DNA of 62,431 nucleotides, filler included, from Dimargaris cristalligena (Eukaryota), in the NCBI GenBank assembly GCA_003614675.1. It is 9 parts of 9 records of this genome, joined end to end, with 100 filler letters (N's around TTAATTAATTAA, not from the genome) between each part and the next. Parts side by side here need not be neighbours in the genome. Positions count along the whole stretch, not along the records: positions 13,982 to 20,857 come from ML003475.1; 8 more parts are not named here. One strand, written 5' to 3'. The notes under the pieces were generated by a model, which saw only the letters and a program-made list of their open reading frames with translations, was not told the DNA's origin and searched no databases. This document shows positions 6,901 through 29,412 of this stretch, in pieces. How positions within the stretch are numbered: position 1 is the stretch's first letter; each line of letters begins with the position of its first letter. The position numbers were made by a program, and so were the translations under genes.

Positions 6901-7000
6901 NNNNNNNNNNNNNNNNNNNNNNNNNNNNNNNNNNNNNNNNNNNNTTAATTAATTAANNNNNNNNNNNNNNNNNNNNNNNNNNNNNNNNNNNNNNNNNNNN
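6901..7000. other. Artificial contig-joining linker (also 13882-13981, 20858-20957, 27817-27916, 34772-34871, 41712-41811, 48639-48738, 55543-55642)
   Basis: Identical N-TTAATTAATTAA-N 100-mers (stops in all six frames). Segment lengths fall monotonically: 6900, 6881, 6876, 6859, 6855, 6840, 6827, 6804. Confidence 0.98.
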
Positions 7001-13881: not shown

Positions 13882-14292
13882 NNNNNNNNNNNNNNNNNNN
13901 NNNNNNNNNNNNNNNNNNNNNNNNNTTAATTAATTAANNNNNNNNNNNNNNNNNNNNNNNNNNNNNNNNNNNNNNNNNNNNGGTAAAGGTCCCGAAACCA
14001 CAAAATAGCACCCCTGTCGGTATATCTCGCAGACACCACATGAGAGATCCATATCTTCGTTAGCCTCATGGACAGTACCCGCCAGTACTATGACTTAGTA
14101 ATAAGGGTGACTATAATGAGCGCCCTCTCGTCTATATATAAGGTCTGGTCCTCCCACCTTTCTTTCAACCATCAATTAGACCCATCAACCCTCCATCCCA
14201 CCGACCTTTCTTCGCCCTTCCTTCTTCACGGCCACCCCCCCCCCCTTTACTCCACCCTCTCCTCCCGTTCAGCTCAGATCATTTTGCCGACC

Positions 14293-14502
14293 ATGAAGCT
14301 CCAGTCTGCCGCTGCCCTCACCCTTGTTTTCGTCCTGGCTACTGTCGCTCAGGTCCACTCTTCGGCCCCTGCCATGACCCACTCGCCCCAACTAGCCAAG
14401 CGTGGATTCCGCTCTGCTGCTGTAAAGGTGGGTGGTGCTTACCTCGGTTACAAAGCGGCCGGAGCTGGCATCAAGATGCTCCGAGAGAATAAGAAGAACT
14501 AG
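14293..14502 (+). CDS. 69-aa secreted prepro-peptide: signal peptide, pro region, Kex2 KR site, 32-aa cationic Gly/Ala-rich peptide
   Basis: MKLQSAAALTLVFVLATVAQVHS-SAPAMTHSPQLAKR|GFRSAAVKVGGAYLGYKAAGAGIKMLRENKKN*. ACCATG start context, TATATATAA at ~14133, pyrimidine-rich leader, C/T-ending codon bias. Confidence 0.85.
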   Translation: MKLQSAAALTLVFVLATVAQVHSSAPAMTHSPQLAKRGFRSAAVKVGGAYLGYKAAGAGIKMLRENKKN

Positions 14503-14944
14503 CCCAGCGACAATTGTTCGGCTGACCCTGCTCAGTCAATGATGATCGATTGCCGGCAGTATGCCAAGTTCGTTTGTATATGAAATATATATATAGTATC
14601 GCCATAACACCCAACACCCATTTTAGTCGATGGCCTCATTAGGGTATGTATCGTTCCATTATCCCCTCGCAATTTTATTAATTTTTGTAAATTTGTATAT
14701 CAGGTAACCGCCTCAGCTTGATTTCCCACTGCCTGACTTAGCACATGTAAATCACAATTTCCTTATAAAATTTGGTGTTTAGTCAATTCACTCTTTGGAA
14801 TCACATTAAATCCAATTGGGCACTCTAGTGGACTCTATTAAATGTATACATGGTTTTGTTTGCTACTTTTGACAGAGTCACATCATACTTGAAAAGTGAT
14901 TTGGGCATAGGTTTCTGGGAAATTTGCCATTGAAAATACCAATG

Positions 14945-15135
14945 CTACTGTATATAAGGGAAGAAAGTAGTAGGGGATGGTGGGTGCCTCCATTTTGTTG
15001 GTTTTCTTCAATAGTGTAGTCAGCAGGGGGCATCTTAAGTGGTTAAAATGAAGAATATATAATTACTAAAGATAATGACATAATAGGTCAAATCCAGGAG
15101 AGAGTAATAGAGCCATTGTGACATTTTTCAACATC
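14945..15135 (+). repeat. Dispersed repeat family E, copy 2
   Basis: Similar to ~5320-5510 and more CpG-depleted. Confidence 0.55.
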
Positions 15136-17599
15136 TCGGGATAAATAGGGGTTTTTACCCAATCACTAAAATTTATTTCATACAGGATATCAGTTCAAAA
15201 GCTTTCATCTGATTTGATTCCTACTATTTGAATTCCCGGATAATCATACTCGCCCAATGCCATCACCATCACCATCCCCTTCTCTATCCCATACCCGTCT
15301 TAAATCCCCTCAACTACCGCCTCCTCGTCGTTCAGGTATTTCTGGCCTCTCCCCTGGTCGTCTGTACCGAGATGTACAAGTTCCTTTATGTAACAATTCA
15401 GAAAGGTATAAAAATTATGTTCTTCAACCGTGGCACTATTGGTAGTCCCTCCCATATATTAGGGAGATACTATGTTCATTATAATCCTTCTGCAGAACTA
15501 GTTCTCCAACAGGGGGTTCCCTAACTGTTTCTCTGACCATTTGCTATGACGAGACCTGCCGACCCATGGTCCCCCACCTACGGCAATTAAATAACTGGGA
15601 TGTCGGTGCACTCGATCTGTGTTGTTCACCAGAGATTCGGGTTGGGCTTAGCTGATACAGCTAGTGGGCTACTATACATCATACAGACGGAGCTCTGGCA
15701 GCGGTAGGCACTTGCTAATAAAGGATTGGCAGGAAATTATGATTACCGAACTTCCGGGTACCGTCGCCTCCCCCACGAGACTGGCCGATATGAGAGGCCA
15801 CTGGTGTATGATCAGCCATCACGTGATTTAACCAGATCCGGTCTTTTCCTTACCAAAAGTTGCGGAGTGCGATAATGTGACAGTTTCTATTCGGGAACGG
15901 CGGTGGGTGTGTGGCCAATGCCTTCGCACGCGGAAGATGAGCTGGCGGCCCACAGTCAGGTACTGTTCGCCAAGTGAAACAGTGTTCCAGTGGGTGAATG
16001 GCCTGGCGGCTCTATTTTTGTCACCCATTGCCATTTGGGAGTCCGTAAATAGTTTTCGTCAGTTCAAGTTCCCTCTTTCCCATTGGAGCCATCTAAATCA
16101 TCCCTCGCATTTGGGAGGAGAGCCATCATTCAGTGAATGTAGTACGGTGCTACTCTTATTGGTGAAGAATAGTAGGGGAAGCTGGGAAAGAACATACTAG
16201 GGAGAAGGTCCAGCATGCCTCCAAGGCCGATCCTATCTACCTCTGCCAAACCGCCAACTTCTGGAAGCCGAATTGGGTCAATTAATAAAAAGCTACCCGT
16301 TTGGATCAGACACAATCTTTGGTGTCCTTGACAGGCACTGGCGGGCGGAAATATATCTATGGGTTCGTTCGCTACCCATGGCTCCTTGCCATGCATTTTG
16401 GTAGGGGAAAATACAGGAGAAGGATTCGAGGACTAGCCGTATCTCCCTCCTGAGGGAGATAGTAATACACGGGTGGAACCGCCTCGGCTGGCCATTCGTG
16501 TAGGGGTAGAATGGTGGAGGAGGCCCTGGTGCTTCATGGTCCCAGGCCTAGGCCATGGGCTATATATCCCTCGTCAGCCCAAGCTGTAGTGGTCACGCAC
16601 TCGGAACTGGACCAGACTCTTCTCAGCGCTTTAACAGCCCCCTTGCCTACCCATACGCAGCCAGCACCTTTCATGCCTTATTTATTGTCGTTTTATTATT
16701 AAAAGAACCAGCGCCTGACCTCGACCTGATTCCTCATAGTTGCTCCTGGCTCTTTGTTGCTCATCCCTAGCCTACCTTGGATAACCCGGTTCATACGGTG
16801 AGATATATATATATATATACCATTTTATTTACATAGCTGCTTCAGAGCGTCGAGCTCGACGGCTCTGCCCATACTTTGGAACCTTGTCTAAACCATTCCA
16901 TTGGCCCTGTGACACCTCAAACGACTCGCTATATGCGTATGCTTTTTTTGGGACTACAAGAAGCACACCGCCCCAGTGTAACTTTCCCCTCAGTAGTTCT
17001 ACCTTTCTTAGCCTTCTTTAGTTTCTCCCTATTATTATTCTCCCTCTTTCCCCCCAGGCGTGTAGTCTCTCTCACCTTTCGATAATACTATCCACTTCTA
17101 CATTTAGCTCTAACCTGGGCTTTACCGGCACTTGGTTACCCAACTAGCGGAACATCATATACCCCCCTGTTACCATTACCCCGTAGTACCCAACGAACCT
17201 CCTCCGTTTCTGGTAGCACTCCTTAGCTACCCGGCACTTTCCCGACTGGTTGGCTCCGTTTTAGTTTATTATCAATACCGTTTTTGCTTTAGTCCATATT
17301 TTAGACAACATGGCCGGTAAGTCCACCCATCCTCGAATGGGTTTCCCCATGCTACCTCATCAGCCCGTGGTCCGTTTCCGGGTAGGGCTGCCCATCGCCC
17401 TGCTGACCTGTACCCAGGAGCCCACCCTTATGGCAGGTTGCCGAGCCGCTGTTCGGCAATACAGCAGATCCCGGGGTTGCGAATCAGTTTTTTAGTCCTT
17501 TACATGCGACACAACCGGCTGTGGAGAGTTGTGATTGGGCCCGACCTTCGACTTGTCTCGCTTTGGACTTCAGGCCCTAAAGCATTTACCCGCTTGCCT

Positions 17600-20500
17600 A
17601 TGTATACCCACTCACTCCCTGCCCGATTACCCCACCACTCCTCCACAGATTTCGGCTTTGATTTTACAGACGAGGAATACGACGAACCCGTGGTCGCCTC
17701 TTCAGATAATGCCGGGAATAGCGACGAGCAACCCTCAGACGATTCTCCCGTTGATACTCGGAGTATAACAGTCGCCTCCGACGCCACCCCTTCCCCCACT
17801 TCACTCACCTCCCTGAGTAGTGAAGTCCTAGTTAATTCCATTGAGGATGCTTCTCCCAAAGGTAGGCCTTTATCAGTCCGCTCTCCTGATGGCATGGATA
17901 TGGATCTGCCTTTGCAATTGTGTTAGTACCCCCTTAACTATGGCTGTCTAGCGCTGGCTACAATTTGGCAGGGCTAAATTTACTAATCAACCACTACCTC
18001 GACTTATCTACCGACCCCCCCTTCTGTATCCCTCTTGAAATCCCAGTTTTGGAAGCGGTATTGCCCAACCAATTTGACGAGGGCGACTTGACTCCTATCG
18101 AACGGCTGTGTATTCGTTCGCAGAGCTCCCTTCCTTTCTTACGGTAAGTGACATCCCTTTTTCTTTGGTATTTCCACTGAATGTCTGTTAATCGGCCCCT
18201 TTATATGGCCTTTTAGAAAAGCCCCGGCTGGGCCGTCGAAGGGGGGGTGGTGTTTGGTAGCTGATTGTCAAAAGCTTGCCCAGTACCAAAACGGTGAGAC
18301 TTCCGTATCCTTGGGCACTGTTTTTCCTAACCCGTTCAGCCGCCTTCTCGTATTCACTGATTGCCCTCGCTTCTTTGTTTTGAACCATCAACCACGGCAG
18401 TGTATGGGCCGCTCGCGAAATCAAAAATGTCCTCCACTCTTCCCCAGTCGCCGATATTCTCACCACCATATTCCCGGTGGCCTTCCAGCTCAGTATGGAC
18501 AAAGGTATGCGTCTCGAGGAAAGGCTGTTGCTATTAGGCATGGTTGGCATACTTGCCTCCCAAATGGCCATTTTCGTTCTTTCGATTGGCCTCTATTCGC
18601 TGGACTGCATCTATATTTCCCAATTAGGGTTTTCAAATAGCTGCTAACATGTATTGGTTTATTCTGGTCTATTTTTTAAAATACCAAATATTATCCGTTA
18701 GATCGATTCGTCCGGGAAAATTTTAGCTGTGATTTATTGCCTCTATTCCTGTACTATTATAAGGTAATATCGTTAGTCGAATTCTCCTTAGGAGGATCAT
18801 GTCAGAGTGCTTTCACTCAGTCTAATGGGCCGTGTTATTAACCCTATAGCTATCTGTACGCGTCACCCAAGTTTGAAACCCAGTGCCTTCATTTGTTAGC
18901 AACTTGCCCAATCCGTCGTTTTTTTTCTTATACGTTTTCCATGTTTTATTATTATTATTATTATTATTGCAAATCCATGGGGCGATTCCTTCCTCAGCAC
19001 GGACACGACCGGAAAACATGCCCACCTGTATCGCCCCTAACCGAAAACACTGCCTTATCCCAAGCACTAGCGGAGTCTGATGATGCGTCCCCCACCAATG
19101 GGTCCCTCGAAAACCCCATTACACATTCCCTTTTCCACGACTGGCTTGAAACCATGCTCCTGGATCCCAGCGTCATCGTTGTCAACGGGGTGCAGGCTGC
19201 ACTCGTAGAACTGGGCCACACTATGGAGTTTGACCTGTATCACACGGAAGTGATTCACCACACTATCCTAAGGTTGGTCAAGTCGGTGATAAAGTCCCGG
19301 CCACCCTCCATTGACATACTGACCGATAATATTCTTTCTGCTGCATTCCTCAACTCCAATTCGGAGTTGGAAGACAAGGCCCTTCGCCGAAAATTAATGG
19401 CCCTTAAACTCATACGCGCCCTGGTGCAGAAATTCGGGTCAGGGCTCAAACCGGCCGTCTTTGTCCCGACCATCGAAAAGACCGCCCAGGATCCCTCGTT
19501 TGAGGTTCGGCGTGACACCGCCTTTACGCTGGGTGAATTGTCCTATGCCTTATCCTACGACTTGGTATTGGAAGGCATATTCCCAATCTTCCAAAATCTC
19601 ATTCAAGACACCAATTGGCAGGTCCGACATGCGGCCGCTCATATTGCATTGCCTAAATTGGCAACCGTCCTGACGGGCTCCCAATGGGCGTCCCCCCAAA
19701 TCACGGTTGGGCCGGGCCGGGCTCTTCATACAGGGCCCAACGGCCCCAGCCATCCGGGTAATGCCTCACTCCCGGCCGGCCAGTCCCCACACTTACCCCC
19801 GCCTGCCCCACCCGTAGCGGCTAAGGTCTGGGCCCAGATTATTGAGCGCCTTTTGGGCAGTCGGGAAGTCAGTTACCCGGTCCAGACCTCTGTATTTGAA
19901 GTCATTGGCCAGTTGATGGTGGCCTTCCAGCACATGGACAAGGTCAAAGAAATTCTGGTTCGCTACTACCTCAGTGTGGTTGAAAGTGCTGTGGACCAGG
20001 ATGTGGTGACCACACCCGAGCTCATTTTCCAATGCGCTTACAACTTTCCGGCCATGCTTTTTATCATGGGTGTCAGCCGTTGGGACGAACTCGCGGACGC
20101 CTACTTGGCCTTAACTAAATTCGACCATTTTGAAGTGCGCAAGACCCTGGCCCACTCCCTACATGAAGTGGCCAAACTATTGGGTCCGGAATTTGGGGAA
20201 CAGTACCACGAAAAAGTATTTGGCTACTTTTTGGTCGATTTGGACGAAATTCAATTGGCTGTAGTGGCTCACCTCACAGATTTTCTCGATTGTCTCTATC
20301 CCGTTGCGCGCGAGCGTTGCCTCCCCCAGATTCTCGAGGTGTTCCAGCACGAAGGTAACAACTGGCGGGCCCGGGAGACCATGGCCCAGCAACTAGCCCC
20401 ACTGTGTCGACTCTACCCTGAACGCACTGTTGTTCGTCATCTACTCCCGTTGGCCGTTCATTGGGCCAAGGATCAAGTTGCAGCCGTCCGGGCAGCCGCC

Positions 20501-20857
20501 GCCAGTGCCTTTCCGGTCATCTTTGACATGACCAAGGAGGACCCGGGGCTTCAAGTACAGTTCTTTGAAAGTATCATTCAATTCCGGGCCGCCACTACCT
20601 TCCGGGCCCGCCTATTCTTTATCCAAATCTGCGAGGCACTTCTGACCCAGCAGGTGGACGCTACAGATTTCGAGCAGTTCTTTTTACCAAGTTTGTTAGC
20701 CCTAGCAAACGACAAGGTATCCAATGTACGGATTGCGGTGGCCCGGACGCTCAAGCGCTTACTTCCTGCCCAAACGGCGATGTCGGCAGAACCAACGGAG
20801 GATACAAAATCGAGGTCGTCGTCAACTCAGTCCTCACCCCGATCATCGACTAATTCG
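17600..20857 (+). CDS. PPP4R1: HEAT-repeat protein phosphatase 4 regulatory subunit 1-like, 3'-truncated (exons ~17600-17921, 18048-18143, 18401-18503, 18702-18763, 18998-20857)
   Basis: GT-AG introns join in frame. HEAT motifs DPSFEVRR, DTNWQVRH, DQVAAVR, DKVSNVR; PP4R1-like CAYNFPAMLF, VRKTLAHSLHEVA, NWRARE. Start codon uncertain. Confidence 0.8.
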
Positions 20858-22683
20858 NNNNNNNNNNNNNNNNNNNNNNNNNNNNNNNNNNNNNNNNNNN
20901 NTTAATTAATTAANNNNNNNNNNNNNNNNNNNNNNNNNNNNNNNNNNNNNNNNNNNNCCTGGAGAAGCCACCCTGCCCTTTTGATATATTTTTGTTGTTC
21001 ATTTTAGTGGCCTGACACCACCACACTGTGACACCGTCGCCGGAGTTTGGACGATCCACGATGGCGGAGCTTTAACAGAACGGTCGAAGGTAAAATAATA
21101 TAAGATAACTAGTAAAAAGTGAAATCTTGACCTCCGGTTGAGGTCTTCGATTACTGCTGGGGTAAAACTGCTGGGTGAAGTTAAAAGTAGATATTTATTC
21201 TGAATAATAAAAACTTATCTCGGTGATAACTTGCCGTTTTAAGGGCCGACTTGGTGCTACATATTTATAGCAACGTGTAGATGTGAACATAAACTCATAC
21301 TAAAACTTTCGGACATCGTCCGCAGATGGACTAACCGCCATAAAACTGCGAAGGGAAAAACTGGCGGGGTCTTCGAGTTCAACGAATAGCGGAAAAGGAA
21401 GGAAAGAAAAATAACGGAAATTGGAAGACAAAAGATGTCTTCGGATCTTCCAACGTTCTCGTGTGAACAGTATATATATATATGTACGTGGAAGTGTTGA
21501 GTTCCACTCGTAGGTCTCGGAGTGCTCAATCCATGGAAGTGGAGTTATTCACTTTTACCGTCCAGGAAGCGGAAAGGAACTCGTTTTCGGACGAGGATTA
21601 ACCAACATAGGTCTTCCGAATACTCATGCAAGGGTGTAACTGTAGCATGCGCAAGGATCACATGACGAAGGTCGCGACTAGTTTGTCTTGTGGAGAGGAT
21701 AACCCATCCCAACCCATGTCAGTACATATGGCGCTATTCTATAGGCAATACATCTATTGTAGTATAAAGCTATTCAGAATAAACGTCAACCCGACAAGCT
21801 TAAGCAATGCCACAGTGCCTAATGATAAAGCAGCTTGCACGGCCATTGCTGTTAAAAAAATGACATTGTGTCCCATATGGCTGCCGATCCCCCCTAACCT
21901 ATGCGGTTCATTCTAGCCCATTCACAAAATAGCCAAGTGGGCGAACCACATTATTACTGTAGTTAATCTAGCCTCTAAAATCCCCAGAAGGCAAGTTTAA
22001 TTCGCACGACTTATTGGCGACCCTGCGAAGCAGTAGTTGTTTGGGAGCGCCGCCTTAATTTTTTTAATAGAGATCCGCCTACACCCGACCCCCATAGCCT
22101 CGGCTTTATATTTCCTATTTGGATCACCCCCCTATACCACTCAAATATATAAAAATATATTCCTGAAAACCCCAACGCAACTGACCAATAGGCTGCCCAT
22201 GTCACGCATCTAACACCGTCGCTATTGTGCTTCAGCACATCACAAGGAAAAGGAATCATTAATTTTATCCCAGAAACTAGGTGCATTAAGGATATGCGAG
22301 CCTTCTCCCCGCCCCTTCCATAAACCCTGAAGAAGTACATCAAACATAGTGGCAATTCCCAATCCAGAGAGCTCTACGTATAGAAGAGAAATACAAATAA
22401 ATAGATTTATATATTATAATAAATGGGGGAGATGGGGGGGGGGGATCAGGTGCACAGATTAGATACAGTCAATGTCCTAACGGGAAAGTGTAAGGCAAAG
22501 GTAGGCGCGGAATAGGGAAAACTAGGGACGAAGGTGTCAAATAGACAGGGTAGGCAGAAACGGAGTGGATTAAACGTATTGAGTTGCTAATCCGAGGTAT
22601 ATGGAAGAAACTCAAGCGGCAGGTTACAAAAAGAGGGAAAAAATAATATAGCCAAGGTGGTTTATATTATTAATGTTTTTTTT

Positions 22684-29208: not shown

Positions 29209-29412
29209 CTATCGAGATCGGGGCAAAGGGTTGGATTTAAATCTGATGAGCAAGAAGCTCAGCTTAAAGTCAGGCGCGCGCTTTCCCAACCAATGATCGA
29301 ATCGAACAGGGAGATGCGAGTTGAGCGACCCATTCGTTGGCATGGAGTGTGATAATGGGGAGGCTAAAAGTGCGATAAAAGCCGCCAAAATAGTGAATCG
29401 TAAGGCGTGCAT
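29209..29412 (-). CDS. 67-aa secreted prepro-peptide: signal peptide, pro region, KR site, 22-aa cationic/hydrophobic peptide
   Basis: MHALRFTILAAFIALLASPLSHS-MPTNGSLNSHLPVRFDHWLGKR|APDFKLSFLLIRFKSNPLPRSR*. TATATAA near 29550. A paralogue lies 3.4 kb away. Confidence 0.75.
   Translation of the reverse strand: MHALRFTILAAFIALLASPLSHSMPTNGSLNSHLPVRFDHWLGKRAPDFKLSFLLIRFKSNPLPRSR

Follow-up and report, generated by a model that had tools for sequence, protein, structure and literature searches.

Fungal antimicrobial peptides are sorted in a review into Cys-rich defensins and peptaibols (PMC8583803). Kex2 is described as needing Arg at P1 and preferring Lys or Arg at P2 and Leu at P4, and short disordered pro-pieces that end in KR or LxxR, which precede KR in many fungal effectors, mark the "K2PP" class of secreted effectors (PMC8528282). 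Among insect peptides, the moricin Px-Mor is made as a 65-aa precursor that consists of a 23-aa signal and a 42-aa mature peptide with an amphipathic helix at residues 5 to 22 (PMC6797621). The Dimargaritales are described as haustorial parasites of other fungi that are found almost only on dung (PMC9866270).

Here we describe a small gene of Dimargaris cristalligena, a dung-dwelling haustorial mycoparasite (PMC9866270). The gene, called gene A, has the build of a minimal kexin-processed precursor. In the reading that we prefer, the 69-aa product would enter the secretory pathway via a cleavable signal peptide, a Kex2-type kexin convertase would cut after L-A-K-R37 in the Golgi, and a 32-residue peptide, free of Cys and Pro, rich in Gly and Ala and strongly basic, would be released outside the hypha. 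The peptide, flexible and cationic, may bind other microbes (bacteria of the dung or the Mucorales host) at their anionic envelopes, whether membrane or wall. Binding would occur through its charge and a conserved N-terminal block, and not as a pore-forming amphipathic helix. We give the whole account, from a real, secreted and kexin-processed product to an antagonistic or host-directed envelope-binding role, a probability of roughly 0.45. That the product is real, secreted and processed by kexin is, on its own, a probable proposition on the sequence evidence, and an antimicrobial or host-directed role for the predicted peptide is plausible.

Layout and surroundings of gene A

The window, that is, the whole stretch of 62,431 nucleotides that was analysed, consists of nine contigs, each about 6.9 kb long, with spacers between them that read 44 N, TTAATTAATTAA and 44 N (6901-7000, 13882-13981, 20858-20957 and others). 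Because these nine contigs are unrelated, neighbourhood arguments are valid only inside 13982-20857, the 6876-nt contig on which gene A lies, 311 nt from the contig start.

Gene A is an ORF of 69 codons and a TAG stop at 14293..14502 (+) and its product is identical to residues 16-84 of the public model P0002. A sequence-only reading had proposed that this ORF encodes a signal peptide, a pro region of about 14 residues, KR and a Cys-free basic 32-mer, and the translated ORF reads in this way, with a signal-peptide-like start. Residues 1-23 (14293..14361, +) are signal-peptide-like: M-K precedes an uncharged hydrophobic core of 14-15 residues, V-H-S stands at -3/-1, and the (-3,-1) rule, read directly, places cleavage most likely after V-H-S23 or else after residue 19 or 21. 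This is a rule-based reading of a region that also passed a heuristic signal-peptide filter. The 14-residue pro-piece SAPAMTHSPQLAKR (14362..14403, +), delimited by translation and paralogue alignment, is rich in Pro, Ser and Ala, is without an acidic residue and ends in L-A-K-R. This kexin-type site occupies residues 34-37 of 69 (14392-14403, +, with K36-R37 at 14398-14403), and the predicted released peptide of 32 aa extends by translation from there to the stop codon (14404..14499, +). The charge that had been given for the 32-mer, 7 K/R and 1 E for a net of +6, was reproduced on recalculation, and the computed pI and mass are 10.4 and 3327 Da. The 32-mer contains 6 Gly, 6 Ala, 0 Cys and 0 Pro, and Cys is absent from the whole precursor as well.

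A clear TATA box and start context had also been reported. Both elements are present: the TATA-like motif TATATATAAG lies at 14133..14142 (+), 160 nt 5' of the ATG and followed by a C/T-rich leader that runs to 14292, and the start context is ACC-ATG-A. However, TATAWAWR has 179 matches in the 62-kb window, so the TATA box is weak evidence.

The next gene on the contig is represented by a long exon at 19016-20857 (+), open to the contig end, that encodes a HEAT-repeat protein (PF02985, E 4.5e-21; PPP2R1A-like HEAT, E 6e-10). It looks like a housekeeping gene, with no evident link to the peptide gene. Ten ORFs between 15.2 and 18.6 kb matched no Pfam family above its cut-off, and no peptide-tailoring genes were seen in the downstream part of the contig, only 311 nt being present upstream. 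Dispersed repeats lie just 3' of gene A, at 15002-15051 and 14656-14939. The first, a piece of about 50 nt, has a summed depth that is very high, reaching 4496 in run X4, and is flanked by many different sequences, and diverged copies of 14656-14810 and 14673-14939 occur on other contigs.

A second small ORF of the same build is found on a different contig of the window, at 29212-29412 (-). Its 67 codons encode a signal-like start, a pro-piece ending in L-G-K-R and a basic 22-mer. The sequence is unrelated to gene A, had no Pfam match and was absent from the protein collection; with a codon score of -0.026, it is a weaker candidate than gene A.

A small family in Dimargaris cristalligena

A word-indexed protein search with gene A found 2 proteins, while an exhaustive phmmer search of 1.84 billion protein representatives gave five matches: P0002, P0004, P0005 and two IQ-repeat proteins. 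P0002 is the public model of gene A. P0003 and P0004 represent a single gene, paralogue B, that is 80-81% identical to gene A, and P0005/P0008 (70 aa) represent paralogue C, which is 41-43% identical over its full length (E 3.2e-5 against 1.84e9 proteins). Both paralogues match gene A in precursor length and build and have its start and stop. The predicted released peptides of the paralogues have 32-34 aa and 0 Cys, and net charge is positive in all three (+6 in A, +4 in B and +8 in C). All family proteins are named Dimargaris cristalligena by their sources, and they come from two assemblies.

The P0002 cluster includes two further near-identical proteins: P0010, which the assembly of P0002 has on a different contig, and P0009, which belongs to the second assembly. 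T17I and V21A, two substitutions within the signal peptide, are their only differences from gene A of the window, and both also occur in contigs of runs X4, X5 and X6. P0002, P0009 and P0010 are probably alleles of gene A, since D. cristalligena is described as a non-haploid species (Ahrendt et al. 2018, as cited in PMC9866270); five higher-than-haploid species are mentioned in PMC6784888, their names not being given in the text consulted. Three contigs, two in run X4 (2765 and 925 nt) and one in run X1, align with the window over 14379-14467 alone, at about 84% and with 12-14 differences. The letters 5' of this match, read in frame by eye, give a pro-piece of equal length that shares 4/10 residues with gene A, and codons 42 and 44 of this copy differ from both A and B. 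It is probable that these contigs carry a fourth, unannotated family copy, for which the databases searched gave no protein. As judged from these sequences, the family has three annotated loci and probably a fourth, and it has so far been seen only in Dimargaris cristalligena.

Within the 62-kb window, the gene A ORF was the sole match to the family profile (E 8.5e-46; next best, 0.66), and searching 5.8 billion clusters with the profile gave nothing beyond the four Dimargaris proteins. Pfam gave 0 families for the gene A product at E up to 10, PF06451 included, and, with the limit set at E 0.01, 0 for P0003 and P0005. In the PDB, the family profile retrieved only an scFv leader (E 0.12) and the 32-mer retrieved nothing. 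The sequence-only reading had named a match to a known non-toxic family as an outcome that would speak against it; no such match was found in Pfam, the PDB, the 1.84 billion protein representatives or the 5.8 billion clusters. The literature searched made no mention of the locus tags or accessions of the family proteins. On this evidence the family is most likely a lineage-restricted, kexin-type pro-peptide family, and a credible one.

Candidates from wider searches were rejected. Pattern matches numbered 254 in JGI metagenome contigs, with 0 confirmed, and 51 in prokaryote genomes, with 1 confirmed (Verrucomicrobiaceae MAG contig L001, 579-761); the latter is a Pro/Ala/Ser-rich low-complexity frame and was set aside as chance. 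The two IQ-repeat proteins in the phmmer results, P0006 (E 9e-5) and P0007 (E 2.2e-4), showed a repeat-inflated compositional likeness. Each has 10 IQ repeats (PF00612), and a 23-mer of similar composition, repeated ten-fold, inflates the score; single stretches align at 30-39% identity, and Gly stands where the IQ consensus, which has Gln and basic residues, places its Gln. The PF00612 calmodulin-binding HMM found no match in the gene A product.

Conservation across the family is concentrated around the predicted processing site. Residues Q33, L34, K36 and R37 are invariant in 6/6 aligned family sequences. Gene A and paralogue C agree at 9/23 positions of the signal, 5/14 of the pro-piece and 15/32 of the released peptide; within the peptide they agree at 7/8 of the first eight residues and at 2/9 of the C-terminal tail. 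The best-kept block, Q-L-x-K-R plus the eight residues that open the released peptide, extends to both sides of the predicted cleavage site. Combined with the preferences of Kex2, this block speaks for a kexin site that is functional and for a product whose N-terminus is constrained, and we infer that the gene A product is cleaved at L-A-K-R.

The same pattern bears on what the peptide might do once released. A specific ligand or effector would account for the conserved N-terminal block just as well as an antimicrobial would, and this counts against the account that we prefer. The peptide could be a non-lytic secreted ligand recognised via its conserved N-terminus, either a haustorial effector that manipulates the host or a self-signalling, pheromone-like peptide. 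The strongest conservation falls on the cleavage site and the first eight released residues at an overall identity of 41-43%, charge and the C-terminal tail vary, the lifestyle is described as biotrophic and haustorial (PMC9866270), and Kex2-released signalling peptides are known in fungi (PMC6339444). On the other hand, the precursor holds a single copy and is not repeated as in alpha-factor-type precursors, and conservation beside a cleavage site may reflect processing needs only. We consider a ligand or effector of this kind unlikely, though it is the likeliest alternative to an envelope-binding peptide. Many precursors of cationic antimicrobial peptides have an acidic pro-piece, and the fact that the pro-piece of gene A is not acidic counts against an antimicrobial role.

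Helix, start codon and coding evidence

The 32-mer had been read as a cationic helix and set beside linear membrane-lytic peptides such as PGLa/magainin and candidalysin. Hydrophobic moments at 100 degrees were calculated for paralogues A, B and C with the Eisenberg and Fauchere-Pliska scales and compared with those of shuffled sequences (10,000 for gene A). For gene A, the Eisenberg moment was 0.175 against a shuffle mean of 0.175 (P 0.46), the Fauchere-Pliska moment was 0.086 (P 0.77), and the best 18-residue window gave P 0.28 and 0.48. Over the three paralogues and both scales, P was 0.43-0.88. The best angle of 150-155 degrees, a beta-like periodicity, was not significant once the choice of angle was allowed for (P 0.12-0.88), and neither was a residue-size moment that would mark a small Gly/Ala face in the paralogues (P 0.08-0.31). 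The helical-wheel check thus went against the proposal: "helix" is an interpretation, not an observation, and it fails this test. Since the moment equals that of shuffles in three paralogues, these peptides are basic but are not amphipathic helices of the magainin, PGLa or candidalysin type, and the usual structural argument for membrane activity is removed. The description of the 32-mer as Gly/Ala-rich with GxxxG spacing stood in its first part; one strict GxxxG is present in A (mature residues 11-15) and two in B, which keeps that of A, but the motif is not conserved, with 0 in C.

A membrane-lytic, linear amphipathic alpha-helix comparable to magainin, PGLa or candidalysin is therefore quite unlikely. 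The 32-mer is short, Cys-free, net positive at +6 and Gly/Ala-rich with one GxxxG, all of which speak for such a helix. In addition, the first match in the ESM Atlas was a moricin-like cluster, for both the whole precursor (0.87; 167/256 features) and the mature part (0.77), but the calibration that comes with the tool counts scores below 0.9 as no more than leads, and we treat the likeness to moricins found by the language model as a weak lead only. However, neither the paralogues nor the best 18-residue window separate hydrophobic from cationic residues at about 100 degrees, as linear amphipathic helical peptides do; neither the angle scan nor the size-based moment supplied another periodicity, and C lacks GxxxG.

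Public gene models place the start of gene A differently. Three models from two assemblies agree on an upstream ATG exon encoding MDSTRQYYDL (14068-14097) and an intron with GT-AG ends (14098-14277; together 14068..14277, +), for a product of 84 aa, and the frame is open from 14044. The resulting 15-residue N-terminal extension would bury the signal, and the gene would then encode a small membrane-anchored or otherwise non-released protein with a buried hydrophobic segment. However, the N-terminal extensions of the B and C models are unrelated to that of gene A and to each other, depend on the assembly and are absent in P0005; the hydrophobic core of about 15 residues is short for a membrane span; and the public models were apparently built without transcript data, as the genome paper nowhere uses the stem "transcriptom" in its main text. 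The models have one start in common, the Met at 14293, and no other. The upstream exon and intron are probably a gene-caller artefact, and we regard the 84-aa product as improbable. The public models are accordingly corrected here, with 14293 as the shared start instead of the upstream exon.

Evidence that the ORF is coding came from composition, variation and divergence. The codon score of the gene A frame is 0.079 versus -0.12 to -0.49 in the other five frames, a contrast that is inflated because a stop-codon penalty lowers out-of-frame scores. The codon score carries only modest weight, as 16.8% of the 107 Met-ORFs of 50-100 codons that the window contains reach the same value. GC content is 0.58 in the ORF versus 0.38 in the 3' flank. 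A signal-peptide-like start with a dibasic site at residues 22-70 was present in 2/1193 stop-to-stop ORFs of at least 30 aa in a scan of the 62-kb window, so that the signal-plus-dibasic build of gene A appears to be more than chance. Within the ORF a single indel was seen, an AAG inserted in frame after 14490 that adds a Lys to the peptide tail in an allele of run X5, whereas runs X4 and X5 have 1-nt deletion alleles at 14235, in the C-run of the upstream leader and inside the intron of the 84-aa models. These variants are strain or haplotype variation, and the contrast between them is the indel behaviour of coding DNA.

The strongest coding evidence is what has been kept in copies diverged to 41% identity: paralogue C retains an open frame, start, stop, signal, L-x-K-R and peptide N-terminus. 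A chance or decaying ORF that was copied a few times would be in keeping with the very short frame, the lack of relatives found outside the species, a codon score that is unexceptional among small ORFs and the dispersed repeats just downstream, but it would not be expected to keep all of these features in a copy so diverged or to show in-frame indels inside the ORF and a 1-nt indel upstream of it. We consider a non-functional ORF highly improbable. Small orphan secreted ORFs are common in fungal genomes, and for this reason gene A is for now a well-formed candidate and not a discovery. We infer its secretion and its extracellular role, which would be that of an envelope-binding peptide released by kexin.

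Gene A and described peptide systems

True homology with insect moricins, by descent or transfer, is close to negligible: a moricin-like cluster was the first ESM Atlas match for both queries and precursor size is similar (Px-Mor, 65 aa with a 23-aa signal), but PF06451 and all other Pfam families were without a match at E up to 10, moricin was absent among the five exhaustive phmmer matches, the mature length is 32 versus 42, and the gene A peptide lacks the amphipathic helical segment reported near the moricin N-terminus (PMC6797621). The likeness to moricins (PF06451, lepidopteran) is one of general form: precursors measure about 65-69 aa, signals about 23 aa, and the mature peptide is very basic and Cys-free; in the moricin described, however, signal and mature peptide fill the precursor with no kexin pro-piece mentioned, whereas gene A has one (PMC6797621).

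The precursor layout resembles that of K2PP effectors. The 14-residue pro-piece of gene A lies in the first half of the precursor and ends in LAKR at residues 34-37/69, and its site is L-x-K-R, with the P4 Leu preferred by Kex2. As in the K2PP effectors, a signal, here a putative one, is followed by a short pro-piece rich in disorder-promoting residues and by KR with P4 Leu, and the product is predicted to be secreted by a fungus living on another organism (PMC8528282). In contrast to those effectors, which are folded proteins of plant pathogens, gene A would yield a 32-residue Cys-free peptide in a fungus whose host is a fungus, and there is no sequence relation (PMC8528282).

KEPs are likewise secretory precursors in which cuts at KR or RR release small peptides, but they have three or more repeats, which is the pipeline minimum, whereas gene A has one KR and one unit in 69 aa (PMC6339444). 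No longer multi-copy relative was found among 7999 scored candidates or in the length-unlimited phmmer search, and this, with the single copy, rules out a KEP identity. Candidalysin resembles the gene A peptide in being Cys-free and linear, in its length (31 residues versus 32 here) and in kexin release after Arg, which for gene A is predicted; its precursor Ece1p, however, is a 271-aa polyprotein that is cleaved on either side of the peptide, with further trimming by Kex1p, whereas the gene A precursor is minimal and the C-terminus is set by the stop codon (PMC5784256). Candidalysin is also described as an amphipathic helix (PMC13426942), unlike the gene A 32-mer, which lacks an amphipathic moment. 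A relation to Ece1p/candidalysin was rejected, as no Ece1-like sequence was among the five phmmer matches and the peptide runs to the stop codon.

The 32-mer is cheap to synthesise and can be tested on host fungi and bacteria, and an active peptide would be a new variant of the theme of kexin-released fungal peptides. The boldest proposal, which for now we hold as tentative and unlikely, is that gene A belongs to a gene-encoded family of linear, cationic, Cys-free peptides for attack or defence, the first such family from an early-diverging (Zoopagomycota) fungus and a convergent counterpart of insect peptides of the moricin/cecropin type. The peptides would be made from a minimal signal/pro/LxKR precursor that has diversified into several paralogues, and the haustorial mycoparasite would use them against the Mucorales fungus that it parasitises or against competing dung bacteria. 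Peptaibols, by comparison, are made non-ribosomally. They are described as short and rich in non-proteinogenic Aib, and fungal defensins as Cys-stabilised, whereas the gene A peptide is gene-encoded and, with 0 Cys, lacks the basis for a CS-alpha/beta framework (PMC8583803). What it may share with both is an antagonistic role for a fungal peptide, and if a mycoparasite from the Dimargaritales, a little-studied order, has a family of basic, Cys-free peptides that kexin releases, the picture of defensins and peptaibols drawn in that review would become wider (PMC8583803).
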